Origin: Escherichia coli
Lineage (GTDB): Bacteria; Pseudomonadota; Gammaproteobacteria; Enterobacterales; Enterobacteriaceae
Assembly (NCBI RefSeq): GCF_044324785.1
Contig: NZ_CP172127.1
Reading direction: 5' to 3' (one strand)
DNA: 64,000 bases
The notes beneath the pieces are model-generated. The model saw nothing but the letters and a program-made list of their open reading frames with translations, did not search any database and was not told the origin of the DNA. Position numbers and translations under genes: made by a program. Shown piece by piece: positions 8,028-64,000 of this stretch; positions within the stretch are counted from its first letter, which is position 1, and each line of letters opens with the position of its first letter.

Positions 8028-10454
8028 TTAAACCTTTTCGATCTGGACAAGATTGCTGTGCGACGGGTTTCCCTTTGCCAGCGGTGAAGGGCGGTGAGAG
8101 GTCAGAATATTAATACTGCCGCCGTGATCGACCCGGTCACCAAACATATCCGCTTTAAGCCACGCACCTTGCCCGATGGCGGTAACGCCAGGCAGAATAC
8201 GCGGAGTCACTTTTGCGGCAATCAGCATTTCTCCATTATTGTTAAATACCCGCACGGTATCGCCATGACGGATACCGCGTGCCTGAGCATCAATAGGGTT
8301 GATCCACACCTCTTGTGGGCAGGCCTGCTGTAACACATCAATATTGCCGTAGCTGGAGTGGGTACGCGCTTTGTAGTGGAAGCCCGTTAACTGCAGTGGA
8401 TAGGTTTTCCGCAGGGGATCGTCCCAGCCATCAAAACCTGGGGTATACGCAGGAAGGGGATGAATAATTTCATCTTTTTTCAATTCCCAGGTATCCGCAA
8501 TCGTCGCCAGTCGTTCAGAATAAATTTCGATTTTCCCCGAAGGTGTTTTCAACGGGTTTGCCTGTGGATCTTCACGGAATGCGCGGAAAGCGACGTAGTG
8601 TTCTTCCGGGCATTTTTTCTTAAAGATCCCGGTCGTTTTCATCTCCTCGTAGTCGGGCATCTCAGGGTTACGTTCCTTCGTTTTCGCATGGAGATATTTG
8701 ATCCATTCGTGCTGACTGCGGTCTTCAGTAAAGGTTTGATAAACGTCTGGTCCTAAGCGTTTGGCGACTTCGCTCAGCATCCAGTAGATGGGTTTGCGTT
8801 CAAATTTTGCTGAGGTTGCGGGTTGGGCGAGGATCACATAGCCCATATTCCCGGCAGATTCGTGAGAGATAAGGTCTTCTTGCTCTGTTGGCATCAGGTC
8901 GGGCAACAGGATATCGCAATACTTAGCCGAGGCAGTCATGAAGTGGTCAATGCCAACAATCATCTCGCACTTGCTGTCATCCTGAAGCACCTCATGGGTG
9001 TGATTGATGTCGCCATGTTGATTGATCAATGTGTTACTGGCGTAGCACCATAAAAACTTGATGGGGACATCCAGTTTTTCTTTTCCACGAACACCATCAC
9101 GGGTCGCGGTCATTTCCGTACCGTGGTCGATGGCATCTGTCCATGTAAAGACGGAAATCTGCGTTTTAACAGGATTCTCGAGCATCGGGAACCATTCTAC
9201 CCCCAGATCCCAGCTACCTTCGCGTACACCTGAGTTGCCGCCGTTTATGCCGACGTTACCGGTGAGAACGGAAAGCATGGCAATAGCGCGGGACGTTTGC
9301 TCGCCGTTGGAGTGTCGTTGTGGCCCCCAACCCTGACAAATATAAGCAGGTTTTGCTGAACCGATCTCTCGTGCCAACTGGATAATTTTTTCTGCCGGTA
9401 TGCTGGTGATTTTTGCTGCCCATTCCGGCGTTTTAGCTATGCCGTCAGGCCCTTCGCCCAGAATATAGGCTTTATAATGCGCGTTACGTGGTGCGTTGGC
9501 GGGCAGCGTTTTTTCATCGTAACCAACACAATATTTGTCGAGAAATGGCTGATCGACCATGTTTTCAGTAATCAGTACCCAGGCAATCGCACAGGCCAGT
9601 GCGCCATCGGTGCCTGGGCGAATTGGCAGCCATTCATCTTCACGCCCGGCAGCAGTGTCGTTATAACGTGGATCGATGACGATCATGCGTGCGTTTGAAC
9701 GTTCTCGGGCTTGCTCGACGTAGTAAGTGACACCACCGCCGCTCATCCGGGTTTCTGCCGGGTTATTTCCGAACATAACGACCAGTTTCGTATTGGCGAT
9801 ATCATCCGGGCTGTTGCCATCATTGGCACCGAACATATAACTCATTGCGGCACTGATCTGTGCGGTACTGTAGCTACCATAGCGACTGAGAAAACCACCG
9901 CAAGAGTTCATCAGACGGTACGGGACGTTTGAGTTGGTGATGTTTCCGCCATCTACGCCTGTTCCGTACAGGACATGTACAGCCTCATTGCCGTAATCTT
10001 TTAGGATCCGCCGAAGATTATCACTGATGGTATCCAGGGCTTCGTCCCAACTTATCCGTTCAAATTTACCTTCACCGCGCTTGCCGACGCGCTTCATGGG
10101 ATATTTCAGCCGATCAGGATGATTCATCCGTCGGCGGATAGAGCGCCCGCGTAAACACGCCCGAACCTGATGATTACCGTAAACGTCGTCACCTGTCGTA
10201 TCAGACTCCACCCAGTACACAGTGTCATCTTTCACATGCAAACGTAACAGACAGCGGCTCCCGCAGTTAACGGTGCAGGAACTCCAGACCGCTTTCTCTT
10301 CTACCGGTGCCTCTGCCGCTCGGACCATTTGGGAAAATGGCAGAGTGAAAGCACTGCTTGCCAGCGCGAGACTGCCAAGTGCGGAGGTTTTCATCAGACT
10401 TCTACGGCTGATTTCAGCCTTCATGAGCGCCTCTGTGGTATGGAATTTCATCAT
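8028..10454 (-). CDS. ynfF: molybdopterin oxidoreductase catalytic subunit (DmsA paralog)
   Basis: 808 aa, twin-arginine signal SRRSLMK, molybdopterin oxidoreductase family; tandem paralog of ynfE. Confidence 0.9.
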   Translation of the reverse strand: MMKFHTTEALMKAEISRRSLMKTSALGSLALASSAFTLPFSQMVRAAEAPVEEKAVWSSCTVNCGSRCLLRLHVKDDTVYWVESDTTGDDVYGNHQVRACLRGRSIRRRMNHPDRLKYPMKRVGKRGEGKFERISWDEALDTISDNLRRILKDYGNEAVHVLYGTGVDGGNITNSNVPYRLMNSCGGFLSRYGSYSTAQISAAMSYMFGANDGNSPDDIANTKLVVMFGNNPAETRMSGGGVTYYVEQARERSNARMIVIDPRYNDTAAGREDEWLPIRPGTDGALACAIAWVLITENMVDQPFLDKYCVGYDEKTLPANAPRNAHYKAYILGEGPDGIAKTPEWAAKITSIPAEKIIQLAREIGSAKPAYICQGWGPQRHSNGEQTSRAIAMLSVLTGNVGINGGNSGVREGSWDLGVEWFPMLENPVKTQISVFTWTDAIDHGTEMTATRDGVRGKEKLDVPIKFLWCYASNTLINQHGDINHTHEVLQDDSKCEMIVGIDHFMTASAKYCDILLPDLMPTEQEDLISHESAGNMGYVILAQPATSAKFERKPIYWMLSEVAKRLGPDVYQTFTEDRSQHEWIKYLHAKTKERNPEMPDYEEMKTTGIFKKKCPEEHYVAFRAFREDPQANPLKTPSGKIEIYSERLATIADTWELKKDEIIHPLPAYTPGFDGWDDPLRKTYPLQLTGFHYKARTHSSYGNIDVLQQACPQEVWINPIDAQARGIRHGDTVRVFNNNGEMLIAAKVTPRILPGVTAIGQGAWLKADMFGDRVDHGGSINILTSHRPSPLAKGNPSHSNLVQIEKV

Positions 10455-10511
10455 TACTCACTTATTGCTTTTCAAACAAAATGTCATGCCAGAATTTATG
10501 GTTGTAGTGGG

Positions 10512-12938
10512 TTATATTTTTTCGATCTCGACCAGATTAGTGTGCTGCGGGTTTCCCTTCGCCAGTGGTGAAGGGCGCAGAGTGGTTAGCGTATTCACAC
10601 AGCCGCCGTGGTCGATTTTATCGCCAGACATATTGGCCTCGTGCCAGGCTCCCTGACCCATAGCGCTAACTCCAGGAAGAATGCGTGGTGTCACTTTGGC
10701 TGGTAGCCGAACTTCGCCACGATGGTTAAACACCCGCACCATATCGCCGTTGGCAATCCCACGTTTCTGTGCATCTATAGGGTTGATCCACACTTCCTGA
10801 CGGCAGGCTGCCTTCAGGACATCAATGTTGCCGTAGGTCGAGTGAGTACGGGATTTGTAATGGAAACCAAACAGTTGCAGTGGGAAGGTACTACGTTCAG
10901 GGGAGTCCCAGCCTTCAAAGGTTGAGGCATAAACCGGCAGTGGGCTTATCACTTCATCTTTTTCCAGTTCCCAGGTACGGGCAATTTCCGCCAGCTTGCT
11001 GGAATAAATTTCAATCTTACCGGAAGGCGTTTTAAGTGGATTTGCCTCGGGGTCGTCACGAAATGCTTTGTAGGCGACAAAATGACCATTGGGATCTTTA
11101 CGCTTATAGATACCCATTTTTTTCAGTTCGTCGTAAGACGGTAACGCCGGATCTTTGGCAAGCATTTTGGCGTACAGATGTTGTAACCATTGTTCCTGCG
11201 TGCGACCTTCAGTGAACTTTTGATAGACGTCAGGTCCAAGACGTTTCGCGACTTCACTCAGGATCCAGTAAATCGGTTTGCGTTCGAATTTTTCGCTGGT
11301 GACAGGCTGGAGGAAAATGAGATATCCCATGTTACCGGTGTAGTCGTTAGGAATAATATCTTCCTGCTCAACGGTCATCAGGTCTGGCAGCAGAATGTCG
11401 GCATATTTTGCCGATGAGGTCATAAAGTTTTCGATGACCACAATCATTTCGCATTTCGATTCGTCCTGCAGAATTTCATGCGTTTTGTTGATGTCAGAAT
11501 GCTGATTAACCAGGGTATTTCCCGCGTAGTTCCAGATGAACTTAATGGGCACATCCAGTTTATCTTTGCCCCGGACGCCGTCGCGGATTGCCGTCATTTG
11601 CGGGCCATGATCGATAGCATCCGTCCAGCTGAAGCAGGAGATTGACGTTTTGACCGGATTATCAAGCACCGGCAGGCGTTCTATGGTAATGGTATAGGTC
11701 GATTCACGCGCGCCACTATTCCCGCCGCTGATGCCGACATTGCCCGTCAGAATAGGCAACATCGCAATAGCGCGTGCAGTCAGCTCGCCGTTTGCCTGGC
11801 GTTGCGGTCCCCAGCCCTGGCAGATATAAGCGGGTTTTGCTGTGCCAATTTCACGCGCCAGTTTGATGATACGGTCCACCGGGATACCGGTAATTTGCGA
11901 AGCCCACTGCGGCGTTTTCGCTGTTTTATCGTCACCTTCACCAAGAATATAGGCTTTATAGTGACCATTTTTTGGTGCATCTGCGGGTAAGGTTTTTTCG
12001 TCATAGCCGACGCAGTATTTATCGAGAAAAGGTTGATCAACGAGATTTTCGTTAATCAATACCCAGGCAATACCCGCAACCAGCGCGGCATCGGTGCCCG
12101 GGCGAATAGGAAGCCATTCGTCTTCACGACCGGCAGCCGTATCGGTATATCGCGGATCGATAACAATCATTTTTGCGTTCGATTTCTCGCGCGCTTTTTC
12201 AAGAAGATAAGTGATGCCACCGCCGCTCATGCGGGTTTCTGCCGGGTTGTTACCAAACATCACGACCAGCTTGCTGTTTTCAATATCCGTGGTGCTGTTG
12301 CCATCATTACTGCCGTAGGTGTAGGGCATGGCACAGGAAATTTGCGCGGTGCTGTAGGAGCCATACTGATTGAGTGAACCGCCGTAGCAGTTCATCAGGC
12401 GTTTGACCGCCGAGGCTGATGGTGAAGAGCGGGTCATATTGCCGCCAACAATCCCCGAAGAGTACTGAATATATACAGCCTCATTGCCATATTGTTCGAC
12501 GGTTTTTTTCAGGCTACTGGCGATAGTATCCAGGGCTTCATCCCAGCTAATCCGTTCGAATTTGCCTTCGCCGCGTTTGCCCACGCGTTTCATTGGGTAA
12601 TTCAAGCGATCGGGATGATTAATACGCCGACGGATGGAGCGACCGCGCAAACAGGCACGTACTTGATGATTGCCATACTCGTCGTTGCCGGTGTTGTCAG
12701 TTTCCACCCAGGTCACTTCATTATCTTTAACATGCAGACGAAGTGCACAGCGGCTACCACAGTTGACGGAACAGGCACCCCAGACCACTTTCTCGCTGGC
12801 CTGTTGTACCGCTGCCGCTGCACTGCGCAGGGTGAACGGTAAAGAAAAACCGCCTGCAGCCAGCGCCAGAGAACCTATCGCGGTAGATTTAACGAGTGTT
12901 CTGCGGCTGATGCCCACCATTTGTTCATTTTTGGACAT
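10512..12938 (-). CDS. ynfE: molybdopterin oxidoreductase catalytic subunit (putative selenate reductase, DmsA paralog)
   Basis: 808 aa, twin-arginine signal SRRTLVK, highly similar to the adjacent ynfF. Confidence 0.9.
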   Translation of the reverse strand: MSKNEQMVGISRRTLVKSTAIGSLALAAGGFSLPFTLRSAAAAVQQASEKVVWGACSVNCGSRCALRLHVKDNEVTWVETDNTGNDEYGNHQVRACLRGRSIRRRINHPDRLNYPMKRVGKRGEGKFERISWDEALDTIASSLKKTVEQYGNEAVYIQYSSGIVGGNMTRSSPSASAVKRLMNCYGGSLNQYGSYSTAQISCAMPYTYGSNDGNSTTDIENSKLVVMFGNNPAETRMSGGGITYLLEKAREKSNAKMIVIDPRYTDTAAGREDEWLPIRPGTDAALVAGIAWVLINENLVDQPFLDKYCVGYDEKTLPADAPKNGHYKAYILGEGDDKTAKTPQWASQITGIPVDRIIKLAREIGTAKPAYICQGWGPQRQANGELTARAIAMLPILTGNVGISGGNSGARESTYTITIERLPVLDNPVKTSISCFSWTDAIDHGPQMTAIRDGVRGKDKLDVPIKFIWNYAGNTLVNQHSDINKTHEILQDESKCEMIVVIENFMTSSAKYADILLPDLMTVEQEDIIPNDYTGNMGYLIFLQPVTSEKFERKPIYWILSEVAKRLGPDVYQKFTEGRTQEQWLQHLYAKMLAKDPALPSYDELKKMGIYKRKDPNGHFVAYKAFRDDPEANPLKTPSGKIEIYSSKLAEIARTWELEKDEVISPLPVYASTFEGWDSPERSTFPLQLFGFHYKSRTHSTYGNIDVLKAACRQEVWINPIDAQKRGIANGDMVRVFNHRGEVRLPAKVTPRILPGVSAMGQGAWHEANMSGDKIDHGGCVNTLTTLRPSPLAKGNPQHTNLVEIEKI

Positions 12939-23055: not shown

Positions 23056-23108
23056 GGGCGGCAGAGCAGTCACGGAGTAAAACTGATACCGCCAAACGTC
23101 ACCAGAAA
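23056..23108 (-). ncRNA. dicF: DicF small regulatory RNA
   Basis: Minus strand reads TTTCTGGTGACGTTTGGCGGTATCAGTTTTACTCCGTGACTGCTCTGCCGCCC followed by a T-run, matching recalled DicF; lies between ydfC and dicB as in K-12. Confidence 0.85.
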
Positions 23109-28464: not shown

Positions 28465-29755
28465 ATACAGCGAACTCCATTGGTTTAGTTGGATATTTAC
28501 TGTGCTGGACAAAAACGGTTTGCGGGGAAATCTTAGTTAAGTAGAATGACTGCGGGTGCTTGAGGCTATCTGCCTCGGGCACGAACACCAACGGCAGGTA
28601 GAGAAAAGCCCCAGTTAACATTACGCGTCCTGCAAGACGCTTAACATTAATCTGAGGCCAATTTCATGCCAGACACATGTAGGTTAGCCTCTTACGTGCC
28701 GAAAGGCAAGGAGAAGCAGGCTATTGTTAACACCAAGCTGTAATGTCCCCTTTGAACCATTCTAAAATGTCCCCAGACAATTCTCTGGGGGATTTTTCAT
28801 GACCAAAGAAACTGTTACGATGAGTCATAAGGAACTCCACCGACTTCAGATTATTCAGGAGTCAATTAATCGACATATTACTCAGGAACAAGCTGCGGCA
28901 CGCATTGGCATTTCTATTCGGCAGGTTAAACGTCTGGTGCAACGGTATAGAAATGAAGGGCCTTCTGGTCTGGTTTCCCACCGACGTGGAAAGCGTCCTA
29001 ATAATTCCTTTTCTACTGAATTCAGAGCAACAGTAATTTTACTCCTCAAAGGCCGTTACGCTGATTTTGGACCTACGTTTGCGTGCGAAAAATTGCGCGA
29101 GATACACGGTTTATCTTTATCCGTTGAAACTCTCAGAAAGTGGATGATAGAAGAGGGGGGTATGGCGTGAACGCCGTCGTAAAATTGCCCGTATATATCA
29201 ACGCCGCATGCGACGACCATCTTACGGTGAACTGATCCAGATTGATGGCTCACCTCATGACTGGTTTGAAAATCGAGGCCCCAGATGTACACTGATCGTT
29301 TTCATTGATGATGCCACCAGTGCGTTGATGGCGTTGCGTTTTGTGCCTGCTGAAACAACCCGGGCTTACATGGAAACCCTCCGGGGTTACCTTAATGATC
29401 ATGGCGTACCGCTCGCTCTCTACTCTGATAGACACAGTATATTCAGGGTAAATAACCCAGAGCGGGAAGGTGAGCTGACCCAGTTCACTCGTGCGATAAA
29501 GACACTGGGCATCGAGCCAATCCATGCCAACAGCCCGCAGGCAAAAGGGCGGGTAGAGCGCGCCAATCAGACACTACAGGACAGGCTGGTCAAAGAAATG
29601 CGGCTTCAGAATATCAGTGATATTGAAACAGCAAATGCATGGTTGCCGACCTTTATTGAAGCCTATAACAACCGGTTCGCTACGTCGCCTCGTACTACTG
29701 ATAATGCTCATCTTGATGTGCACCATTCTGAAGAGGAACTGGGTTATATCTTCAG

Positions 29756-29764
29756 CCTACAGGC
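29756..29764. repeat. 9-bp target site duplication (CCTACAGGC), left copy
   Basis: Identical 9-mer immediately flanks both ends of the IS. Confidence 0.8.
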
Positions 29765-30821
29765 GGCTTTGTTGAATAAATCAGATTTCGGGTAAGTCTC
29801 CCCCGTAGCGGGTTGTGTTTTCAGGCAATACGCACGCTTTCAGGCATACCTGCTTTCGTCATTTTGTTCAGCGCTCGTACCAGGGCCATAGCCTCCGCAA
29901 CCTGACCATCGTAGTCACGCAGCGTCAGTGAACCCCCGAACAGCTGTTTTACCCGGTACATCGCCGTTTCCGCTATCGAGCGACGGTTGTAATCTGTTGT
30001 CCATTTCCACCGCGCATTACTCCCGGTCATTCGCTGATTAGCCACTGCACGGTTACGGTCTGCATATTCACCGGGCCAGTAACCCGCACCTTTTCGGGGA
30101 GGGATAAGCGCGCTGATTTTCTTACGCCGCAGTTCATCGTGACATAGCCGGGTATCGTAAGCGCCATCGGCGGCGGCTGACCTGATTTTCCGGTGGGTTT
30201 GCCGGATTAACCCGGGGAAGGCCTCTGAGTCCGTAACGTTGTTCAGCGACAGGTCAGCGCAGATGATTTCATGTGTTTTACTGTCAACGGCGAGATGCAG
30301 CTTACGCCAGATACGGCGGCGTTCCTGGCCATGCTTTTTGACTTTCCACTCGCCTTCACCGAAGACCTTCAGCCCGGTGGAATCAATTACCAGGTGTGCG
30401 ATTTCACCCCGGGTGGGCGTTTTGAAACTGACATTAACCGACTTTGCCCGCCTGCTGACACAGCTGTAATCCGGGCAGCGTAGCGGAACGTTCATCAGAG
30501 AAAAAATGGAATCAATAAAGCCCTGCGCAGCCCGCAGGGTCAGCCTGAATACGCGTTTAATGACCAGCACAGTAGTGATGGCAAGGTCAGAATAGCGCTG
30601 AGGTCTGCCTCGTGAAGAAGGTGTTGCTGACTCATACCAGGCCTGAATAGCTTCATCATCCAGCCAGAAAGTTATGGAGCCACGGTTGATGAGGGCTTTA
30701 TTGTAGGTGGGCCAGTTGGTGATTTTGAACTTTTGCTTTGCCACGGAACGGTCTGCGTTGTCGGGAAGATACGTGATCTGATCCTTCAACTCAGCAAAAG
30801 TTCGATTTATTCAACAAAGCC
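29765..30821 (-). mobile_element. IS903-group insertion sequence (IS5 family), 1057 bp
   Basis: Perfect 18-bp terminal inverted repeats GGCTTTGTTGAATAAATC, 1057-bp length and 9-bp duplication typical of IS903/IS102. Confidence 0.9.
29821..30744 (-). CDS. IS903-type DDE transposase
   Basis: ORF inside the IS with DDE residues and YREK-like signature; probable GTG start giving 307 aa. Confidence 0.85.
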   Translation of the reverse strand: MAKQKFKITNWPTYNKALINRGSITFWLDDEAIQAWYESATPSSRGRPQRYSDLAITTVLVIKRVFRLTLRAAQGFIDSIFSLMNVPLRCPDYSCVSRRAKSVNVSFKTPTRGEIAHLVIDSTGLKVFGEGEWKVKKHGQERRRIWRKLHLAVDSKTHEIICADLSLNNVTDSEAFPGLIRQTHRKIRSAAADGAYDTRLCHDELRRKKISALIPPRKGAGYWPGEYADRNRAVANQRMTGSNARWKWTTDYNRRSIAETAMYRVKQLFGGSLTLRDYDGQVAEAMALVRALNKMTKAGMPESVRIA

Positions 30822-30830
30822 CCTACAGGC
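30822..30830. repeat. 9-bp target site duplication (CCTACAGGC), right copy
   Basis: Direct repeat of 29756-29764. Confidence 0.8.
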
Positions 30831-36525: not shown

Positions 36526-36825
36526 AAAAATTCCTTAATACTGATAACTTGGCGCACTATACACACGTTCCTGAAGAAAGCTATAGTTTTTTGATGGGGT
36601 TGAAGATGGCTGGATGTCTAAAATAAACATTGCTTCATATGTTCAACTATGCGTTAATGATTGCGTCGGTTTGAAGAACAGACGATATACGAAGTAGTTT
36701 ACTAAAGCAGTTCTCATTTCAGGTGTTATTCACTTATTCCTTCTTTGAGTCTCTCCAATTAAGTACGAAGTCGTTTCTGTTATGCAAACCATTTATGCCG
36801 AAAGGCTCAAGTTAAGGAATGTAGA

Positions 36826-37041
36826 ATGTCAAATAAAATGACTGGTTTAGTAAAATGGTTTAACGCTGATAAAGGTTTCGGCTTTATTTCTCCTGTTGAT
36901 GGTAGTAAAGATGTGTTTGTGCATTTTTCTGCGATTCAGAATGATAATTATCGAACCTTATTTGAAGGTCAAAAGGTTACCTTCTCTATAGAGAGTGGTG
37001 CTAAAGGTCCTGCAGCAGCAAATGTCATCATTACTGATTAA
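36826..37041 (+). CDS. cspB: cold-shock protein CspB
   Basis: 71 aa [23 protein letters not shown] with RNP motifs. Confidence 0.9.
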
Positions 37042-37322
37042 AATTCATCGCTCGTCTGTATACGATAACGAAGAAGGCTGATGCCTGAGTAGAGATACGG
37101 ACAGAGTAGTGAATATTGGATCTCTTTAATAAAAAGTAAGGAGGTCCAATACATGAAACAATGGCTAGCATATTTGGCAAAATCTTAATCAGGAAAAGTA
37201 TGCTAACCATTGTGGTGAAGTGCAGGTTTGCTGCATGAATAGTTTTACAGCAGAAGCTAACTGCTGGCATGGCAAAACAAAGTGCGTAAGTGGATGACTC
37301 CCACAAAAAGCACCACAATCTC

Positions 37323-39350: not shown

Positions 39351-39713
39351 GGTAATATTAAATCGGAACATTTACATCGCGGAATGTAAAATTTAAATAA
39401 AAAGGACTCTTCCATGAGCCAAAATTCCTGAAATCTTAAGGGTAAGATAAAAGGTCTTAATCAGAATGACACGTTATTATTAATAAATAAAGCTATTCTT
39501 TCATTGCTGTGTTTTTCTTTACAAAAGTAATCCTTGCTATGGGTGGTTAATCATGCGTTAATGGTGTTCTGGTTTGTTACAAATTTATCTGAAGCAGTCA
39601 TTGTTATAATTTTATTATTTGTACCTCTTGAGATTTCCTTGTTGGTTTTTCTCTCTGATATTTTTTTTCGGACCATTCTGCCCAAGGGCTAATTTCTTCA
39701 AAAGGTAATAATT

Positions 39714-39926
39714 ATGTCTAACAAAATGACTGGTTTAGTGAAATGGTTTAACCCTGAAAAAGGTTTTGGTTTCATCACGCCGAAAGATGGCAGCAAAGAT
39801 GTGTTTGTCCATTTCTCAGCAATTCAGAGCAACGATTTCAAAACATTAACTGAGAATCAGGAAGTTGAATTTGGTATTGAGAACGGACCTAAAGGTCCTG
39901 CCGCTGTTCATGTAGTGGCGCTTTGA
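39714..39926 (+). CDS. cspI: cold-shock protein CspI
   Basis: 70 aa [23 protein letters not shown]. Confidence 0.9.
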
Positions 39927-40133
39927 GGTAGACAATATTACAAACCATATTCACTTTAGATGCCCGTGTTGTCATGGTTCCCAGTATAGAACATCATCTT
40001 TTGATGTTTCTGACATGAATCCTTTCGGGGCAAAATGTATCTTTTGTAAATCAATGATGATTACATTTGATAATATTTCACAATACTTAAATGCCAGCCG
40101 TCTGTCGTTGGATTTAAAAAAGTGAAAATGAAG

Positions 40134-50775: not shown

Positions 50776-51516
50776 ATGCCAACACCAAATCCTCTGGCAC
50801 CGGTGAAAGGGGCCGGGACCACCCTGTGGGTTTATAACGGGAGCGGCGACCCTTATGCAAACCCGCTTTCAGACAATGACTGGTCGCGTCTGGCAAAGGT
50901 TAAAGACCTGACGCCCGGCGAACTGACCGCTGAGTCCTATGACGACAGTTATCTCGATGATGAAGATGCGGACTGGACCGCGACCGGACAGGGGCAGAAA
51001 TCCGCCGGAGATACCAGCTTCACGCTGGCGTGGATGCCCGGAGAGCAGGGGCAGCAGGCGCTGCTGGCGTGGTTTAATGAAGGTGATACCCGTGCCTATA
51101 AAATCCGCTTCCCGAACGGCACGGTCGATGTGTTCCGCGGCTGGGTCAGCAGTATCGGTAAGGCGGTGACGGCGAAGGAAGTGATCACCCGCACGGTGAA
51201 AGTCACCAATGTGGGCCGTCCGTCGATGGCAGAAGATCACAGCACGGTCACAGCGGCAACCGGCATGACCGTGACGCCTGCCAGCACCTCGGTGGTGAAA
51301 GGGCAGAGCACCACGCTGACCGTGGCATTCCAGCCGGAAGGCGCAACCGACAAGAGCTTCCGTGCGGTGTCAGCGGATAAAACAAAAGCCACCGTGTCGG
51401 TCAGTGGTATGACCATCACCGTGAAAGGTGTTGCTGCAGGCAAGGTCAACATTCCGGTCGTATCCGGTAATGGTGAACTTGCTGCGGTTGCAGAAATCAA
51501 CGTCACCGCCAGTTAA
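50776..51516 (+). CDS. V: major tail protein gpV
   Basis: 246 aa from [20 protein letters not shown] with C-terminal Ig-like region. Confidence 0.9.
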
Positions 51517-51531
51517 TCCGGAGAGTCAGCG

Positions 51532-51954
51532 ATGTTCCTGAAAACCGAATCATTTGAACATAACGGTGTGACCGTCACGCTTTCTGAACTGTCAGCCCTG
51601 CAGCGTATTGAGCATCTCGCCCTGATGAAACGGCAGGCAGAACAGGCGGAGTCAGACAGCAACCGGAAGTTTACTGTGGAAGACGCCATCAGAACCGGTG
51701 CTTGTGTGGTGGCGATGTCCCTGTGGCATAACCATCCGCAGAAGACGCAGATGCCTTCCATGAATGAAGCCGTTAAACAGATTGAGCAGGAAGTGCTTAC
51801 CACCTGGCCTACAGAGGCAATTTCTCATGCTGAAAACGTGGTGTACCGGCTGTCCGGTATGTATGAGTTTGTGGTGAATGATGCCCCTGAACAGGCAGAG
51901 GATGCCGGGCCTGCAGAGCCTGTTTCTGCGGGAAAGTGTTCGACGGTGAGCTGA
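51532..51954 (+). CDS. G: tail assembly chaperone gpG
   Basis: 140-aa ORF ending just after the slippery site. Confidence 0.9.
   Translation: MFLKTESFEHNGVTVTLSELSALQRIEHLALMKRQAEQAESDSNRKFTVEDAIRTGACVVAMSLWHNHPQKTQMPSMNEAVKQIEQEVLTTWPTEAISHAENVVYRLSGMYEFVVNDAPEQAEDAGPAEPVSAGKCSTVS
51930..51936 (+). other. programmed -1 ribosomal frameshift heptamer G GGA AAG (G to G-T fusion)
   Basis: GGGAAAG in the G zero frame a few codons before the G stop; the -1 frame continues as the T ORF. Confidence 0.8.
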
Positions 51955-52370
51955 GTTTTGCCCTGAAACTGGCGCGCGAGATGGGGCGACCCGACTGGCG
52001 TGCCATGCTTGCCGGGATGTCATCCACGGAGTATGCCGACTGGCACCGCTTTTACAGTACCCATTATTTTCATGATGTTCTGCTGGATATGCACTTTTCC
52101 GGGCTGACGTACACCGTGCTCAGCCTGTTTTTCAGCGATCCGGATATGCATCCGCTGGATTTCAGTCTGCTGAACCGGCGCGAGGCTGACGAAGAGCCTG
52201 AAGATGATGTGCTGATGCAGAAAGCGGCAGGGCTTGCCGGAGGCGTTCGTTTTGGCCCGGACGGGAATGAAGTTATCCCCGCTTCCCCGGATGTGGCGGA
52301 CATGACGGAGGATGACGTAATGCTGATGACAGTATCAGAAGGGATCGCAGGAGGAGTCCGGTATGGCTGA
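51936..52370 (+). CDS. T: T portion of the gpG-T tail assembly chaperone fusion
   Basis: ORF in the -1 frame relative to G, running to the start of H. Confidence 0.85.
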   Translation: MFDGELSFALKLAREMGRPDWRAMLAGMSSTEYADWHRFYSTHYFHDVLLDMHFSGLTYTVLSLFFSDPDMHPLDFSLLNRREADEEPEDDVLMQKAAGLAGGVRFGPDGNEVIPASPDVADMTEDDVMLMTVSEGIAGGVRYG

Positions 52371-54942
52371 ACCGGTAGGCGATCTGGTCGTTGATTTAAG
52401 TCTGGATGCGGCCAGATTTGACGAGCAGATGGCCAGAGTCAGGCGTCATTTTTCCGGTACGGAAACTGATGCGAAAAAAACAGCGGCAGTCGTTGAACAG
52501 TCGCTGAGCCGACAGGCGCTGGCTGCACAGAAAGCGGGGATTTCCGTCGGGCAGTATAAAGCCGCCATGCGTATGCTGCCTGCACAGTTCACCGACGTGG
52601 CCACGCAGCTTGCAGGCGGGCAAAGTCCGTGGCTGATCCTGCTGCAACAGGGTGGTCAGGTTAAGGACTCCTTCGGCGGGATGATCCCCATGTTCAGGGG
52701 GCTTGCCGGTGCGATCACCCTGCCGATGGTGGGGGCCACCTCGCTGGCGGTGGCGACCGGTGCGCTGGCGTATGCCTGGTATCAGGGCAACTCAACCCTG
52801 TCCGATTTCAACAAAACGCTGGTCCTTTCCGGCAATCAGGCGGGACTGACGGCAGATCGTATTCTGGCCCTGTCCAGAGCCGGGCAGGCGGCAGGGCTGA
52901 CGTTTAACCAGACCAGCGAGTCACTGACGGCGCTGGTGAATGCCGGTGTGCGTGGTGGTGAGCAGTTTGAGGCGATCAGCCAGAGTGTGGCGCGTTTCTC
53001 CTCTGCATCCGGCGTGGAGGTGGACAAGGTCGCTGAAGCCTTCGGGAAGCTGACCACAGACCCGACGTCGGGACTGACAGCGATGGCACGTCAGTTCCAT
53101 AACGTGACGGCGGAGCAGATTGCGTATGTTGCTCAGTTGCAGCGTTCCGGAGATGAAGCCGGGGCATTGCAGGCGGCGAACGAGGCCGCAACGAAAGGGT
53201 TTGATGACCAGACCCGCCGCCTGAAAGAGAACATGGGCACGCTGGAGACCTGGGCAGACAGGACAGCACGGGCATTCAAATCCATGTGGGATTCGGTGCT
53301 GGATATTGGTCGCCCGGACACTGCCCAGGGAATGCTGGAGAAAGCAGAAAAGGCTTTTGATGAGGCGGACAAAAAATGGCAGTGGTATCAGAGCCGAAGC
53401 CACCGGCGCGGTAAAACCTCAGCATTTCTTGCCAATCTCCGGGGAGCATGGGAGGACAGAGCGAATGCGCAACTTGGGCTTTCAGCCGCCACGTTGCAGG
53501 CCGATCTTGAAAAGGCCAGAGAGATGGCAGCAAAGGACTGGGCCGAGTCTGAGGCATCACGGCTGAAATATACCGAAGAGGCGCAGAAGGCTTACGAACG
53601 CCTGCAGACGCCGCTGGAGAAATATACCGCCCGTCAGGAAGAACTGAACAAGGCACTGAAAGACGGGAAAATCCTGCAGGCAGATTACAACACGCTGATG
53701 GCGGCGGCGAAAAAGGATTATGAAGCGACGCTGAAAAAGCCGAAACAGTCCGGCGTGAAAGTGTCTGCGGGCGATCGTCAGGAAGACAGTGCTCATGCTG
53801 CCCTGCTGACGCTTCAGGCTGAACTCCGGACGCTGGAGAAGCATGCCGGAGCAAATGAGAAAATCAGCCAGCAGCGCCGGGATTTGTGGAAGGCGGAGAG
53901 TCAGTTCGCGGTACTGGAGGAGGCGGCGCAACGTCGCCAGCTGTCCGCACAGGAGAAATCCCTGCTGGCGCATAAAGATGAGACGCTGGAGTACAAACGC
54001 CAGCTGGCTGCACTTGGCGACAAGGTTACGTATCAGGAGCGCCTGAACGCGCTGGCGCAGCAGGCGGATAAGTTCGCACAGCAACAACGGGCAAAACGGG
54101 CAGCCATTGAGGCGAAAAACCGGGGGCTTACTGACCGGCAGGCAGCGCGGGAAGCCACAGAACAGCGCCTGAAGGAACAGTATGGCGATAATTCGCTGGC
54201 GCTGAATAACGTCATGTCAGAGCAGAAAAAGACCTGGGCGGCTGAAGACCAGCTTCGCGGGAGCTGGATGGCAGGCCTCAGGTCCGGCTGGAGTGAGTGG
54301 GAAGAGAGCGCCACGGACAGTATGTCGCAGGTTAAAAGTGCAGCCACGCAGACCTTTGATGGTATTGCGCAGAATATGGCGGCGATGCTGACCGGCAGTG
54401 AGCAGAACTGGCGCAGCTTCACCCGTTCCGTGCTGTCCATGATGACAGAAATTCTGCTTAAGCAGGCAATGGTGGGGATTGTCGGGAGTATCGGTAGCGC
54501 CATTGGCGGGGCTGTTGGTGGCGGCGCATCCGCATCAGGCGGTACAGCCATTCAGGCAGCTGCGGCGAAATTCCATTTTGCAACCGGAGGATTTACGGGA
54601 ACCGGCGGCAAATATGAGCCAGCGGGGATTGTTCACCGTGGTGAATTTGTCTTCACGAAGGAGGCAACCAGCCGAATTGGTGTCGGCAACCTGTACCGCC
54701 TGATGCGGGGCTATGCGGAAGGTGGTTATGTGGGCGGTGCCGGAAGTCCGGCGCAGATGCGGCGGGCTGAAGGCATTAATTTTAATCAGAACAATCACGT
54801 GGTGATTCAGAACGACGGTACGAATGGTCTGCCAGGTCCACAGATGATGAAGGCAGTGTATGACATGGCCCGCAAGGGTGCCCGTGATGAAATTCAGGCA
54901 CAGATGCGCGATGGTGGTCTGTTCTCCGGAGGTGGACGATGA
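52363..54942 (+). CDS. H: tail tape measure protein gpH
   Basis: 859 aa starting MAEPVGDLVVDLSLDAARFDEQ, coiled-coil rich, Gly-rich C-terminal part. Confidence 0.9.
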   Translation: MAEPVGDLVVDLSLDAARFDEQMARVRRHFSGTETDAKKTAAVVEQSLSRQALAAQKAGISVGQYKAAMRMLPAQFTDVATQLAGGQSPWLILLQQGGQVKDSFGGMIPMFRGLAGAITLPMVGATSLAVATGALAYAWYQGNSTLSDFNKTLVLSGNQAGLTADRILALSRAGQAAGLTFNQTSESLTALVNAGVRGGEQFEAISQSVARFSSASGVEVDKVAEAFGKLTTDPTSGLTAMARQFHNVTAEQIAYVAQLQRSGDEAGALQAANEAATKGFDDQTRRLKENMGTLETWADRTARAFKSMWDSVLDIGRPDTAQGMLEKAEKAFDEADKKWQWYQSRSHRRGKTSAFLANLRGAWEDRANAQLGLSAATLQADLEKAREMAAKDWAESEASRLKYTEEAQKAYERLQTPLEKYTARQEELNKALKDGKILQADYNTLMAAAKKDYEATLKKPKQSGVKVSAGDRQEDSAHAALLTLQAELRTLEKHAGANEKISQQRRDLWKAESQFAVLEEAAQRRQLSAQEKSLLAHKDETLEYKRQLAALGDKVTYQERLNALAQQADKFAQQQRAKRAAIEAKNRGLTDRQAAREATEQRLKEQYGDNSLALNNVMSEQKKTWAAEDQLRGSWMAGLRSGWSEWEESATDSMSQVKSAATQTFDGIAQNMAAMLTGSEQNWRSFTRSVLSMMTEILLKQAMVGIVGSIGSAIGGAVGGGASASGGTAIQAAAAKFHFATGGFTGTGGKYEPAGIVHRGEFVFTKEATSRIGVGNLYRLMRGYAEGGYVGGAGSPAQMRRAEGINFNQNNHVVIQNDGTNGLPGPQMMKAVYDMARKGARDEIQAQMRDGGLFSGGGR

Positions 54943-55971: not shown

Positions 55972-56715
55972 ATGACACAGACAGAATCAGCGATTCTGGC
56001 GCACGCCCGGCGATGTGCGCCAGCGGAGTCGTGCGGCTTCGTGGTAAGCACGCCGGAGGGGGAAAGATATTTCCCCTGCGTGAATATCTCCGGTGAGCCG
56101 GAGGCGTATTTCCGTATGTCGCCGGAAGACTGGCTGCAGGCAGAAATGCAGGGTGAGATTGTGGCGCTGGTCCACAGCCACCCCGGTGGTCTGCCCTGGC
56201 TGAGTGAGGCCGACCGGCGGCTGCAGGTGCAGAGTGATTTGCCGTGGTGGCTGGTCTGCCGGGGGACGATTCATAAGTTCCGCTGTGTGCCGCATCTCAC
56301 CGGGCGGCGCTTTGAGCACGGTGTGACGGACTGTTACACACTGTTCCGGGATGCTTATCATCTGGCGGGGATTGAGATGCCGGACTTTCATCGTGAGGAT
56401 GACTGGTGGCGTAACGGCCAGAATCTCTATCTGGATAATCTGGAGGCGACGGGGCTGTATCAGGTGCCGTTGTCAGCGGCACAGCCGGGCGATGTGCTGC
56501 TGTGCTGTTTTGGTTCATCGGTGCCGAATCACGCCGCAATTTACTGCGGCGACGGCGAGCTGCTGCACCATATTCCTGAACAACTGAGCAAACGAGAGAG
56601 GTACACCGACAAATGGCAGCGACGCACACACTCCCTCTGGCGTCACCGGGCATGGCGCGCATCTGCCTTTACGGGGATTTACAACGATTTGGTCGCCGCA
56701 TCGACCTTCGTGTGA
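55972..56715 (+). CDS. K: tail tip assembly protein gpK (JAB/MPN plus NlpC/P60-like)
   Basis: HSHP metal-binding motif and Cys/His peptidase-like region; 3-prime end overlaps I. Confidence 0.85.
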   Translation: MTQTESAILAHARRCAPAESCGFVVSTPEGERYFPCVNISGEPEAYFRMSPEDWLQAEMQGEIVALVHSHPGGLPWLSEADRRLQVQSDLPWWLVCRGTIHKFRCVPHLTGRRFEHGVTDCYTLFRDAYHLAGIEMPDFHREDDWWRNGQNLYLDNLEATGLYQVPLSAAQPGDVLLCCFGSSVPNHAAIYCGDGELLHHIPEQLSKRERYTDKWQRRTHSLWRHRAWRASAFTGIYNDLVAASTFV

Positions 56716-57344: not shown

Positions 57345-60300
57345 ATGGGTAAAGGAAGCAGTAAGGGGCATACCCCGCGCGAAGCGAAGGACAACCTGAA
57401 GTCCACGCAGTTGCTGAGTGTGATTGATGCCATCAGTGAAGGGCCGATTGAAGGTCCGGTGGATGGATTAAAAAGCGTGCTGCTGAACAGTACGCCGGTG
57501 CTGGACAGTGATGGGAATACCAACATCGCCGGTGTCACGGTGGTGTTCCGGGCTGGTGAGCAGGAGCAGACTCCGCCGGAGGGATTTGAATCCTCCGGCT
57601 CCGAGACGGTGTTGGGTACGGAAGTGAAATACGACACGCCGATCACCCGCGCCATCACGTCGGCAAACATCGACCGACTGCGCTTTACCTTCGGTGTGCA
57701 GGCACTGGTGGAAACCACCTCAAAGGGGGACCGGAATCCGTCGGAAGTTCGCCTGCTGGTTCAGATACAGCGTAATGGTGGCTGGGTGACGGAAAAAGAC
57801 ATCACCATTAAGGGCAAAACCACCTCGCAGTATCTGGCCTCGGTGGTGGTGGATAACCTGCCGCCGCGCCCGTTTAATATCCGGATGCGCAGAATGACGC
57901 CGGACAGCACCACAGACCAGCTGCAGAACAAAACGCTCTGGTCGTCATACACCGAAATCATCGATGTGAAACAGTGCTACCCGAACACGGCACTGGTCGG
58001 CGTGCAGGTGGACTCGGAACAGTTCGGCAGCCAGCAGGTGAGCCGTAATTATCATCTTCGCGGGCGCATTCTGCAGGTGCCGTCGAACTATAACCCGCAG
58101 ACGCGGCAATACAGCGGTATCTGGGACGGAACGTTTAAGCCAGCATACAGCAACAACATGGCCTGGTGTCTGTGGGATATGCTGACCCATCCGCGCTACG
58201 GCATGGGGAAGCGTCTCGGTGCGGCGGATGTGGACAAATGGGCGCTGTATGTCATCGGCCAGAATTGCGACCAGTCGGTGCCGGATGGCTTTGGTGGCAC
58301 GGAGCCGCGCATCACCTGTAATGCCTGGCTGACCACACAGCGCAAGGCGTGGGATGTTCTCAGTGATTTCTGCTCGGCGATGCGCTGTATGCCGGTATGG
58401 AACGGGCAGACGCTGACGTTCGTGCAGGACCGACCGTCGGATAAGGTGTGGACCTATAACTGCAGTAATGTGGTGATGCCGGATGATGGCGCGCCGTTCC
58501 GCTACAGCTTCAGTGCCCTGAAGGACCGTCATAATGCCGTTGAGGTGAACTGGATTGACCCGGATAACGGCTGGGAGACGGCGACAGAGCTTGTTGAAGA
58601 TACGCAGGCCATTCTCCGTTACGGTCGTAACGTCACGAAGATGGATGCCTTTGGCTGTACCAGCCGGGGGCAGGCGCACCGCGCCGGGCTGTGGTTGATT
58701 AAAACGGAACTACTGGAAACGCAGACCGTGGACTTCAGCGTGGGGGCGGAAGGGCTTCGCCATGTGCCGGGCGATGTCATTGAAATCTGCGATGATGACT
58801 ATGCGGGGATCAGCACCGGCGGGCGCGTGCTGGCGGTGAACAGCCAGACCCGGACGCTGACGCTCGACCGTGAAATCACGCTGCCATCCTCCGGTACCAC
58901 GCTGATAAGCCTGGTTGACGGAAGTGGCAATCCGGTCAGCGTGGAGGTCCAGTCCGTCACCGACGGCGTGAAGGTAAAAGTGAGCCGTGTTCCTGACGGC
59001 GTTGCCGGATACAGCGTATGGGGGCTGAAGCTGCCGACGCTGCGCCAGCGCCTGTTCCGCTGCGTGAGTATCCGTGAGAACGACGACGGCACGTATGCCA
59101 TCACCGCCGTGCAGCATGTACCGGAAAAAGAAGCTATCGTGGATAACGGGGCGCACTTTGACGGCGACCAGAGCGGCACGGTGAATGGTGTCACGCCGCC
59201 AGCAGTGCAGCACCTGACTGCCGAAGTCACCGCAGACAGCGGGGAGTATCAGGTACTGGCCCGCTGGGACACGCCGAAGGTGGTGAAGGGCGTGAGTTTC
59301 ATGCTTCGCCTGACCGTAACAGCGGATGACGGCAGTGAGCGGCTGGTCAGCACGGCCCGGACGACGGAAACCACTTACCGCTTCACACAACTGGCTCTGG
59401 GGAACTACAGGCTGACAGTCCGGGCAGTAAATGCGTGGGGGCAGCAGGGCGATCCGGCGTCGGTATCGTTCCGGATTGCCGCACCGGCAGCGCCGTCGCG
59501 GATTGAGCTGACGCCGGGCTATTTTCAGATAACCGCCACGCCGCATCTTGCGGTTTATGATCCGACGGTACAGTTTGAGTTCTGGTTCTCGGAAAAGCGG
59601 ATTGCGGATATCAGGCAGGTTGAAACCAGCGCGCGTTATCTTGGTACGGCACTGTACTGGATAGCCGCCAGTATCAATATCAAACCGGGCCATGATTATT
59701 ATTTTTACGTTCGCAGTGTGAACACCGTTGGCAAATCGGCATTCGTGGAGGCTGTCGGTCAGCCGAGTGATGATGCATCAGGCTATCTGGATTTTTTCAA
59801 AGGCGAGATAGGGAAAACCCATCTGGCTCAGGAGCTGTGGACGCAGATTGATAACGGTCAGCTTGCGCCTGACCTGACTGAAATCAGGACGTCCATAACG
59901 GATGTCAGCAATGAAATAACACAGACCGTCAATAAGAAACTGGAAGACCAGAGTGCAGCGATCCAGCAGATACAGAAGGTTCAGGTTGATACAAATAATA
60001 ACCTGAACAGCATGTGGGCAGTGAAGCTGCAGCAGATGCAGGACGGACGCCTTTATATTGCGGGTATCGGTGCCGGTATTGAGAACACCCCTGACGGCAT
60101 GCAGAGTCAGGTGCTGCTGGCGGCGGACAGGATTGCGATGATTAATCCTGCAAATGGCAACACAAAACCGATGTTTGTTGGTCAGGGTGATCAGATATTC
60201 ATGAATGACGTGTTCCTGAAACGCCTGACGGCTCCCACCATTACCAGCGGTGGAAATCCGCCGGCATTTTCCCTGACACCGGACGGAAAGCTGACCGCTA

Positions 60301-60842
60301 AAAATGCGGATATCAGTGGCAGTGTGAATGCGAACGCCGGGACGCTCAACAATGTCACGGTAAATGAAAACTGTACGATTAAGGGCATGCTGGAGGCGAC
60401 TCAGGTCAGAGGTGACTTCGTTAAAGCTGTATCCAAATCATTCCCGAAACAGGCTGGTACGTGGGGTAATACGGAAACACCAAACGGGACGGTTACAGTC
60501 ACCATCAGCGATGATCATAACTTTGACCGTCAAATCATTATTCCGCCCATTATCTTTAACGGAATAGCGTATAGCGATCCGGGAAGTGGTAATAACCCGG
60601 GAGGTACAAGATACACGGGTTATGGTTTTGAAGTTCGCAAAAACGGCGTATTAATCGCATCCAGAGAAACTAAAGGGGCCATTCCCGGTAGTTACAGTGC
60701 AGTTATTGATATGCCGAGTGGCAGGGGAAGCGTCACTCTGGAGTTTAAGATTTTCCAGAAAGGCAATCAGGGGGCAGGCAATATCACCGACTGTACGGTG
60801 ATTGTGACCAAAAAAGCCGCTTCCGGCATCAGTATTCGTTGA
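57345..60842 (+). CDS. J: central tail fiber / host specificity protein gpJ
   Basis: 1165 aa; N-terminal about 800 aa match recalled lambda J, C-terminal region differs. Confidence 0.9.
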
Positions 60843-60864
60843 AATATTTATAACCCCAATAAAG

Positions 60865-60888
60865 GGCGTCAGGAATGACGCCTTTTTT
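60865..60888 (+). terminator. intrinsic terminator after J
   Basis: ggcgtca-ggaa-tgacgcc hairpin followed by T6. Confidence 0.6.
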
Positions 60889-60912
60889 ATTGCAGAAAAG
60901 CGAGAGGTAATT

Positions 60913-61512
60913 ATGCGTAAAGTTTGTGCAGCAATTTTGTCCGCAGCCATTTGTCTGGCCGTATCCGGTGCGCCTGCATGGGCGTCTGAACATCAGTCCA
61001 CGCTGAGCGCGGGGTATCTTCATGCCTCGACGAACGTCCCCGGCAGTGATGATCTGAACGGGATTAACGTGAAATACCGTTATGAGTTTACGGACACACT
61101 GGGGCTGGTGACGTCATTCAGCTATGCAGGAGACAAGAATCGCCAGCTGACCCGTTACAGCGATACCCGCTGGCATGAAGATTCCGTTCGTAACCGCTGG
61201 TTCAGCGTAATGGCGGGGCCGTCTGTGCGCGTGAATGAATGGTTCAGCGCGTATGCGATGGCGGGTGTGGCTTACAGCCGTGTGTCGACTTTCTCCGGGG
61301 ATTATCTTCGCGTAACTGACAACAAGGGGAAAAAGCACGATGTGCTGACCGGAAGTGATGACGGTCGCCACAGCAACACGTCTCTGGCGTGGGGGGCTGG
61401 CGTGCAGTTTAACCCGACCGAATCCGTGGCCATTGATATTGCTTATGAAGGCTCCGGCAGTGGTGACTGGCGCACTGACGGTTTCATCGTGGGTGTCGGT
61501 TATAAATTCTGA
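60913..61512 (+). CDS. lom: Lom-like outer membrane beta-barrel protein (Ail/OmpX family)
   Basis: 199 aa with signal peptide and C-terminal aromatic GVGYKF. Confidence 0.85.
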   Translation: MRKVCAAILSAAICLAVSGAPAWASEHQSTLSAGYLHASTNVPGSDDLNGINVKYRYEFTDTLGLVTSFSYAGDKNRQLTRYSDTRWHEDSVRNRWFSVMAGPSVRVNEWFSAYAMAGVAYSRVSTFSGDYLRVTDNKGKKHDVLTGSDDGRHSNTSLAWGAGVQFNPTESVAIDIAYEGSGSGDWRTDGFIVGVGYKF

Positions 61513-61576
61513 TTAGCCAGGTAACACAGTGTTATGACAGCCCGCCGGTTCAGGTGGGCTTTTTTGTGGGGTGAAT

Positions 61577-64000
61577 ATGGCAGTAAAGATTTCAGGTGTA
61601 CTGAAAGACGGCACAGGAAAACCGGTACAGAACTGCACAATCCAGCTGAAAGCAAAACGTAACAGCACCACGGTGGTGGTAAACACGCTGGCCTCAGAAA
61701 ATCCGGATGAAGCCGGGCGTTACAGCATGGACGTTGAGTACGGGCAGTACAGCGTTATTCTGTTGGTGGAGGGATTCCCGCCGTCACATGCCGGGACCAT
61801 CACCGTGTATGAAGATTCCCGACCCGGTACGCTGAATGATTTTCTCGGTGCCATGACGGAGGATGATGCCCGTCCTGAGGCACTGCGCCGTTTTGAACTG
61901 ATGGTGGAAGAGGTGGCGCGTAACGCGTCCGCGGTGGCACAGAACACGGCAGCCGCGAAGAAGTCAGCCAGCGATGCCGGCACATCAGCACGTGAGGCGG
62001 CAACCCATGCGACTGATGCTGCAGGCTCAGCACGCGCAGCCAGCACGTCAGCCGGACAGGCCGCGTCGTCGGCTCAGTCAGCATCTTCCAGCGCAGGAAC
62101 GGCATCAACAAAGGCCAGTGAAGCATCGAAAAGTGCTGCTGCTGCAGAGTCCTCAAAAAGCGCGGCAGCTACCAGTGCCGCTGCGGCGAAAACGTCAGAA
62201 ACGAATGCGGCAGCGTCACAACAATCAGCAGCCACTTCTGCATCCGCCGCGACCACGAAGGCGTCAGAAGCTGCCACCTCAGCCCGGGATGCGGCGGCCT
62301 CAAAAGAGGCGGCAAAATCATCAGAAACGAGCGCAGCCTCGAGCGCCAGTAGTGCAGCCTCCTCGGCAACAGCGGCAGGAAATTCCGCGAAGGCGGCAAA
62401 AACGTCCGAGACGAACGCTAAGTCTTCTGAGACGGCAGCAGCACAGAGTGCCTCCGCAGCAGCAGACTCAAAAACAGCGGCTGCCTCATCTGCCAGCGCC
62501 GCGTCAACAAATGCCGGGCAGGCCTCAGCCAGTGCCACCGCCGCCGGAAAATCGGCAGAAAGTGCTGCATCGTCCGCTTCAACAGCCACAACGAAGGCTG
62601 GCGAAGCCGCTGTACAGGCCAGCGCAGCAGCGAGGTCTGCTTCCGCAGCGAAGACATCCGAGACGAACGCGAAAGCGTCGGAAACCAGCGCAGAATCCTC
62701 AAAAACGGCTGCCGCATCGTCCGCCAGTTCGGCGGCGTCATCGGCATCATCTGCGTCTGCTTCAAAAGATGAGGCGACCAGACAAGCGTCCGCAGCGAAG
62801 GGCAGCGCCACGACAGCATCCACGAAGGCGACAGAGGCAGCTGGCAGTGCGACGGCGGCAGCACAGAGCAAAAGTACGGCGGAATCCGCGGCAACGCGCG
62901 CCGAGACAGCGGCAAAACGGGCAGAGGATATTGCATCCGCCGTGGCGCTTGAGGATGCGAGCACGACGAAAAAGGGGATAGTACAGCTCAGCAGTGCGAC
63001 CAACAGCACTTCCGAGTCACAGGCGGCAACGCCAAAAGCCGTTAAGGCCGCGTATGACCTGGCTAACGGGAAATACACCGCACAGGACGCTACGACAGCA
63101 CAAAAAGGAATTGTCCAGCTCAGTAGTGCAACCAACAGCACATCTGAAACGCTTGCTGCGACACCGAAAGCAGTGAAAGCAGCTAATGACAATGCGAATG
63201 GTCGGGTACCTTCTGCCCGTAAGGTGAATGGTAAGGCGCTTTCAGCGGATATAACACTGACGCCGAAAGATATTGGTACGCTTAACTCAACAACAATGTC
63301 ATTCAGCGGTGGTACTGGTTGGTTCAAATTAGCAACGGTAACCATGCCACAGGCGAGTTCTGTTGTTTCAATTACGTTGATTGGTGGCGCTGGATTTAAC
63401 GTGGGGTCACCTCAACAGGCAGGTATATCTGAACTTGTTTTACGTGCAGGTAATGGTAATCCGAAGGGGATTACTGGTGCTTTATGGCAGCGCACATCGA
63501 CAGGGTTTACAAATTTTGCCTGGGTCAATACATCTGGTGATACTTACGATATTTACGTTGCAATCGGAAATTATGCGACTGGTGTAAATATTCAATGGGA
63601 TTATACCAGTAATGCCAGCGTGACGATTCATACGTCACCAGCATATTCTGCTAATAAGCCGGAAGGGTTAACGGACGGTACAGTTTATTCACTCTATACG
63701 CCATCAGAGCAGTTTTATCCGCCTGGCGCACCAATCCCGTGGCCATCAGATACCGTTCCGTCTGGCTATGCCCTGATGCAGGGGCAGACTTTTGACAAAT
63801 CTGCATACCCGAAACTTGCAGCCGCTTATCCGTCAGGCGTGATCCCTGATATGCGTGGCTGGACGATTAAGGGCAAACCTGCCAGTGGTCGGGCCGTATT
63901 GTCTCAGGAACAGGACGGCATTAAATCGCATACCCACAGCGCCAGCGCATCCAGTACGGATTTGGGGACGAAAACCACATCGTCGTTTGATTACGGCACT
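61577..64000 (+). CDS. stf: side tail fiber protein, 5-prime partial (continues past window end)
   Basis: Starts [26 protein letters not shown], long Ala/Ser-rich repeat region, then tail-fiber repeat motifs; no stop before 64000. Confidence 0.8.

Follow-up and report, generated by a model that had tools for sequence, protein, structure and literature searches.

The window, i.e., the whole stretch of 64,000 nt of Escherichia coli DNA that was analyzed, contains two overlapping reading frames, G and T, which are situated between the tail genes V and H as in phage lambda. The genes and sequence elements at this locus are as follows.

50776–51516, + strand: gene V, major tail tube protein, with 95.9% identity to lambda gpV over 246 aa and with PF16461 and Big_2 domains
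51520–51525, + strand: Shine-Dalgarno sequence of gene G, GGAGAG, read from the sequence; the distance from the end of the GGAG core to the ATG is 8 nt
51532–51954, + strand: gene G, an open reading frame in the zero frame that encodes a tail assembly chaperone of 140 aa, with 97.1% identity to lambda gpG and a match to PF06894 (Phage_TAC_2, E = 1.8e-58)
51891–51954, + strand: G/T overlap, open in the zero frame as well as in the -1 frame; the open stretch of the -1 frame begins at 51891, and the G stop codon TGA is at 51952–51954
51930–51936, + strand: slippery heptamer G_GGA_AAG (GGGAAAG), read directly from the sequence and identical to lambda positions 10109–10115; PMC3296357 (Table 1) and PMC7618472 name this heptamer as the slippery site of lambda G/GT
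51936–52370, + strand: T reading frame, -1 relative to G; its translation matches PF06223 (Phage_tail_T, E = 6.3e-14) and the protein is 100% identical to the T part of lambda
51945–52013, + strand: candidate 3' structure, with an outer helix (51945–51951/52007–52013), a hairpin (51970–51985/51990–52005), a spacer of 8 nt and a minimum free energy of -38.1 kcal/mol
52363–54942, + strand: gene H, tape measure protein of 859 aa, with 89% identity to lambda gpH (853 aa) and matches to PF06791 and PF09718

The codons at the end of G are GCG GGA AAG TGT TCG ACG GTG AGC TGA. The heptamer at 51930–51936 is therefore phased G_GGA_AAG relative to G, with five sense codons between it and the stop. The -1 frame, translated from 51930, reads GKVFDGELSFALKLAREMGRPDW... 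and stays open across the shift site to position 52370, a length of 146 codons. The initial annotation had placed GGGAAAG in-frame close to the end of G, with T in the -1 frame, and both placements are borne out by the reading frames. A slip at any position of the overlap (51891–51954) would fuse G with T. The conceptual fusion protein, gpGT, in which the G codons are read through AAG and the last G is re-read, has 279 aa, and the T part makes up its C-terminal 144 residues. On gpGT, Pfam places PF06894 (lambda TAC protein G) ahead of PF06223 (minor tail protein T).

Within the overlap, a heptamer could lie in frame at 19 positions. The number expected by chance at these positions is 0.088 for any heptamer of the form XXXYYYN and 0.002 for GGGAAAG; G_GGA_AAG is the only X_XXY_YYZ motif found among them. 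Recoding-site architecture was taken to require a long zero-frame open reading frame upstream, a stop no more than 7 codons away, and more than 100 open codons in the -1 frame. GGGAAAG occurs 14 times in the window, and only the copy at 51930 is built this way, with a 138-codon zero-frame open reading frame upstream, a stop at the required distance and a -1 frame open for 146 codons. A comparison of all in-frame X_XXY_YYZ heptamers in the late genes (n = 11) gives the same picture, in that only the one at 51930 leads to a long -1 open reading frame (146 codons) and the others lead to frames of 3–48 codons. Given the low expectation for the overlap and the unique arrangement of reading frames, chance does not account for the heptamer at the G-T site.

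The total of 14 GGGAAAG copies on the two strands of the window can be compared with 7.75 ± 2.27 expected from dinucleotide shuffles, where none of 100 shuffles reached 14. Codon or composition bias may be the cause of this excess.

Over its 839 nt, the G-T region shares 98.0% identity with positions 9711–10549 of lambda (NC_001416), with 17 differences. A comparison with the lambda G/T junction, which was proposed in the initial annotation as a check, shows that the heptamer is unmutated and that at least 17 nt on either side of it are identical. In G there are nine synonymous and four non-synonymous differences from lambda, and in T there are four synonymous and none that are non-synonymous. 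At the protein level, 4 of the 279 residues of gpGT are changed (F58C, L59V, N117D and T122A), all in the G part. The pattern of substitutions in G and T relative to lambda looks purifying. The lambda G/GT site itself is an experimentally defined programmed -1 frameshift site (Levin, Hendrix and Casjens 1993; Xu, Hendrix and Duda 2004, 2013 and 2014).

A number of properties of the lambda site are relevant here. GGGAAAG constitutes the lambda G/GT site, at which ~96% of ribosomes remain in frame (PMC3296357). Both lysine codons are decoded by tRNA-Lys(UUU), and 2-thiolation of this tRNA lowers the shift rate, affecting phage yield (PMC3296357; PMC7618472). The proteins gpG and gpGT are needed at a ratio of ~30:1 and neither is present in the virion; the G part has the tape measure protein H as its binding partner, and the T part has the tube protein V (PMC5009743). 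The survey of Sharma et al. 2014 (PMC4066793) places G_GGA_AAG with the heptamers that shift most readily in E. coli and marks the gpG cluster as true.

The site in the window is very probably a lambda-type G/GT programmed -1 ribosomal frameshift site of a lambdoid prophage. By analogy with the lambda experiments, from which the occurrence of the shift in this prophage, its rate and the protein interactions are extrapolated, the ribosome at G_GGA_AAG would have peptidyl-tRNA-Gly on GGA and tRNA-Lys(UUU) on AAG. Most ribosomes would read five further codons and terminate, which would yield the 140-aa chaperone gpG. A minor share, about 3–4% in lambda, would move back by one base, with the tRNAs re-pairing to GGG and AAA, and these ribosomes would continue in the T frame to 52370 and produce the 279-aa gpGT. 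As in lambda, the shared G part would then bind H and the T part would recruit V, and a gpG:gpGT ratio of ~30:1 would be needed for tail assembly. Gene V of the prophage would thus be the partner of the T domain and gene H that of the G domain, if the roles found for lambda (PMC5009743) apply here.

A shift-prone motif is found at the homologous position in 240/240 related viral contigs and in all members of a 13-locus reference panel. It takes five forms: G_GGA_AAG, A_AAA_AAG, G_GAA_AAG, G_GAA_AAA, and G_GCA_AAA followed by TAG. The lambda-like contigs (n = 80) have GGGAAAG in 78 cases and AAAAAAG in two; the in-frame position is the same, and the G stop is five codons later in 80/80. The more distant contigs (n = 160) have G_GAA_AAG in 148 cases, G_GCA_AAA and then TAG in 11, and G_GAA_AAA in one. 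The reference panel extends from lambda down to 37% GT protein identity, and in it the junction is always homologous, with G_GGA_AAG, A_AAA_AAG or G_GAA_AAG as the motif. The motif thus varies while its shiftiness and its position stay, which implies selection on recoding. The claim in the initial annotation of a conserved lambda G-T programmed -1 frameshift signal is supported by this distribution, as well as by the flanks that are identical to lambda, the Pfam domains and the V-G-T-H gene order.

Viral contigs of the distant G-T clade (L144–L151 and L172) have G_GCA_AAA directly followed by TAG in place of the heptamer. This arrangement suggests single-tRNA slippage on A_AAA, helped by the adjacent stop codon.

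The heptamer alone may not be the whole signal, since reporter frameshifting with the bare motif is 0.28%, against ~4% reported for lambda. One possibility is that the heptamer acts together with a clade-specific nested stem on its 3' side (51945–52013), which would pause ribosomes and lift the shift from the bare level to ~4%. We consider this unlikely, although several observations are consistent with it. The 84 nt that follow the heptamer have a predicted folding energy of -38.1 kcal/mol (z = -3.4) and are in the lowest 2.6% of 313 windows of the same size from the late genes. The fold is present in all tested clades with DWRAML in their T sequence, with z values of -2.6 to -4.7 except in L063 (z = -1.0), and it is restricted to clades of this type. 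There is one clean compensatory switch, at pair 16-84, which is A-U in 36 sequences and G-C in 27. In the 13-sequence panel, six compensatory pairs are found and 2.4 ± 0.9 are expected. With moderate stimulators, G_GGA_AAG goes from 0.28% to 3.8% frameshifting (PMC4066793), and the latter value is similar to the ~4% of native lambda (PMC3296357). A downstream structure for this cluster had been flagged earlier by Sharma et al. 2014 (Tables S4 and S8, PMC4066793).

Other evidence is against a conserved 3' stimulator. Covariation was analyzed in a family-wide set of 64 distinct junctions and, within the DWRAML clade, in 35 and then 67 sequences. The robust covariation measures are at the chance level in alignments A4, A5 and A7, where the observed number of two-sided pair changes is reached by 189/500, 123/500 and 398/500 shuffles, respectively. 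RNAalifold gives no family-wide consensus fold for the 64 distinct junctions, and most DWRRML clades have no stable fold at the junction. Within the DWRAML clade, two pairs decay with no compensating change. At 0.325, synonymous divergence across the structure equals that of the rest of T, and wobble-site entropy is alike at paired and unpaired sites (p = 0.27). In addition, the viral contig L047 (IMGVR_UViG_2874956758_000002) has a natural in-frame deletion of 45 nt in T that removes the 3' half of the structure, but the heptamer is retained. For the gpG cluster (G_GGA_AAG_4), Sharma et al. 2014 list no reduced synonymous variability and no Shine-Dalgarno-type stimulator (SD = N), and their hairpin has a ddG of ~0, i.e., a stability that is not above average (PMC4066793). 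A conserved 3' stimulator is on these grounds set aside as a finding and is at most an unproven candidate: the covariation seen with 13 sequences is lost in the larger sets and there is no synonymous suppression, and Sharma et al. 2014 had arrived at the same picture.

The deletion in L047 falls between two GACTGGC direct repeats.

No motif of the GGAG, AGGA or GAGG type is present in the 18 nt before the heptamer, where a Shine-Dalgarno-like stimulator, expected 6–17 nt ahead of the motif, was looked for. Rfam 15 covariance models over positions 51700–52300 give chance-level matches only (E ≥ 0.31, far under the gathering scores). Levin et al. are said to have found a modest downstream effect on lambda frameshifting. 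It can also be proposed that the lambda/N15/phi80 (DWRAML) branch is not free of stimulators as reviews state, in that the stem at 51945–52013 lifts 0.28% to ~4%, while the DWRRML sisters lack the stem and have the G stop beside the motif instead; we regard this broader proposal as quite doubtful.

The element that carries the G-T site extends from ~18.1 to 64 kb and is a Qin-family lambdoid prophage located beside rspB, with dicB/dicC, DicF, relBE, hokD, ydfT (Q), essD/rrrQ and nohA. In E. coli K-12, Qin is a prophage remnant. In contrast to that remnant, the element in the window has kept its integrase intact, along with all of a lambda-type head and tail module. At the sequence level its tail-assembly gene set is complete and of lambda grade, the recoding signal included. 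Full-length, uninterrupted counterparts of all lambda morphogenesis proteins are present from Nu1 to J, with identities of 82–100%. Identity to lambda is 89–100% for the tail proteins Z, U, V, G, H, M, L, K and I, and 82% for J.

Some parts of the module are less similar to lambda than others. Among the tail-shaft assembly proteins of this element, H has diverged most. The host-range end (57345–64000) is the most diverged part of the tail module: J, at 82%, has indels and the Lom homologue is just 46% identical. The side tail fibre region has patchy matches to lambda and extends past the end of the window. At 55972–56715, RefSeq annotates a C40 peptidase of 247 aa, and lambda K has 199 aa (equivalent to 56116–56715); the start annotations disagree. 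Rfam searches of the prophage find the DicF sRNA, a sok-type antitoxin RNA and two cspA-type thermoregulator leaders, in the intervals 23056–23107 (- strand), 28554–28725 (+ strand), 36665–37057 (+ strand) and 39568–39953 (+ strand).

The Qin-family identity of the element bears on whether the site is in use. A defective prophage could have the lambda G-T site by descent, with its late genes silent, and the site would then have been kept through recent acquisition or recombination and not through use. In the early region, within 29208–30823, an IS5-family (IS903-like) transposase open reading frame at 29821–30789 (- strand) abuts a truncated transposase at 29208–29795, and a related genome has annotated pseudogenes in the corresponding region. 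Because the element is of the Qin family and has IS5-family and truncated transposases in its early part, the late operon may never be transcribed. Several findings argue against an intact relic of this type. All head and tail open reading frames from Nu1 to J are full length. The integrase, the Q antiterminator and the lysozyme gene are intact, and an excisionase is annotated beside the integrase in related genomes. The substitutions relative to lambda are mostly synonymous. Ten or more unrelated E. coli genomes carry the identical G-T region, and a copy of the region occurs in 3701/5426 complete E. coli genomes, or about two thirds. A silent relic is an improbable reading of the locus.

In the related strain MB46, a copy of IS5 is present at a different site, inside ydfV.

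The initial annotation had also taken preservation of the heptamer as support for a functional tail assembly pathway. This holds only at the level of the open reading frames, as judged from the full-length genes Nu1 to J and the purifying-looking substitutions. The genes belong to a Qin-family prophage with an insertion sequence in its early region, and its late operon may be silent.

Programmed frameshifting at the heptamer is the preferred reading, and two other explanations for the relation between G and T were considered. According to the first, T is an independent gene that starts at the GTG at 51936 and the heptamer is incidental. A stand-alone T coding sequence beginning with this GTG is given by RefSeq/PGAP both here and in NC_001416. 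However, V, G, H and M all have a Shine-Dalgarno sequence, and GTG 51936 has none before it. Just 12 of the 64 distinct homologous junctions have a start codon at the GTG position; in the remaining lineages the first possible T start codon is at six other positions. In other records, T is either given as partial or begun at one of several codons further on. In most lineages, the first possible start codon comes after the invariant T residues E7, F10, L14, A15 and E17. In lambda experiments, T is expressed as the gpGT fusion (PMC3296357; PMC5009743). An independent T from GTG 51936 is rejected because of the missing Shine-Dalgarno sequence, the unconserved start and the invariant residues upstream, and we hold this explanation to be extremely improbable.

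Past the heptamer, the zero-frame tail of G is short and its sequence varies (CSTVS, SSTAS, HSKAS, PSPVS, P, S, etc.). A short and variable tail is expected if this stretch is selected in the T frame.

The second explanation, that the fusion results from transcriptional slippage in which RNA polymerase adds or skips a base, has almost no probability and is rejected because the homopolymer runs at the site are only G3 and A3, i.e., just 3 nt, the tracts that support polymerase slippage being far longer than 3 nt; nothing specific to the locus favors it, and the run of 6 A is in the A_AAA_AAG variants of related phages. The sensitivity of the lambda shift to tRNA-Lys modification also points to the ribosome (PMC3296357).

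Frameshifting at the heptamer has a consequence for annotation. The GTG at 51936 is not a real T start, yet RefSeq keeps the stand-alone T coding sequence. The separate T represents an annotation convention, since T has neither a ribosome-binding site nor a conserved start. The joined 279-aa gpGT coding sequence is unannotated in the lambda RefSeq record and in the E. coli genomes examined. As RefSeq has T as a stand-alone coding sequence, the true 279-aa gpGT is absent from the protein catalogues for thousands of genomes.

Stand-alone T coding sequences are found at positions 51936–52370 of the window, at 10115–10549 of NC_001416, and in NZ_CP076264.

The G-T frameshift described here is an already known, classic case of recoding and very little in it is new. 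It is closest to the G/GT site of phage lambda (NC_001416, positions 10109–10115), with which it shares the heptamer and its phasing, the distance of five codons to the G stop, the lengths of G (140 aa) and gpGT (279 aa), the V-G-T-H gene order and a T domain that is 100% identical at the protein level. It differs from lambda in that the host element is a chromosomal Qin-family prophage by rspB and in that H has 859 aa and not 853.

The chaperone of Stx phages (cluster A_AAA_AAG_25 of Sharma et al. 2014, ECs1801; PMC4066793) is of the same family and has the same junction position, with the G stop five codons on. Its heptamer is A_AAA_AAG instead, and the protein identity to the GT of the window is about 53–57%. 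The junctions of the N15/phi80/mEp type have homologous G and T, a homologous shift position, an A_AAG ending and a T without a start of its own. Their motif, however, is G_GAA_AAG, in which the first triplet is non-canonical and GAA re-pairs to GGA with a mismatch. Many have the G stop only one codon past the motif, and their protein identity to the GT of the window is 37–53%. The N15 record (NC_001901) labels GGAAAAG as a "slippery sequence for -1 translational frameshift". Outside the tail genes, the signals of E. coli dnaX and of IS911/IS3 combine a heptamer of the same class, with an A_AAG ending that is read by the shift-prone tRNA-Lys(UUU), with a Shine-Dalgarno-like element, a 3' structure or both. 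Their stimulators have been demonstrated by experiment and their shift rates are high, whereas the site in the window has no upstream Shine-Dalgarno-like element and its 3' structure is a predicted one.
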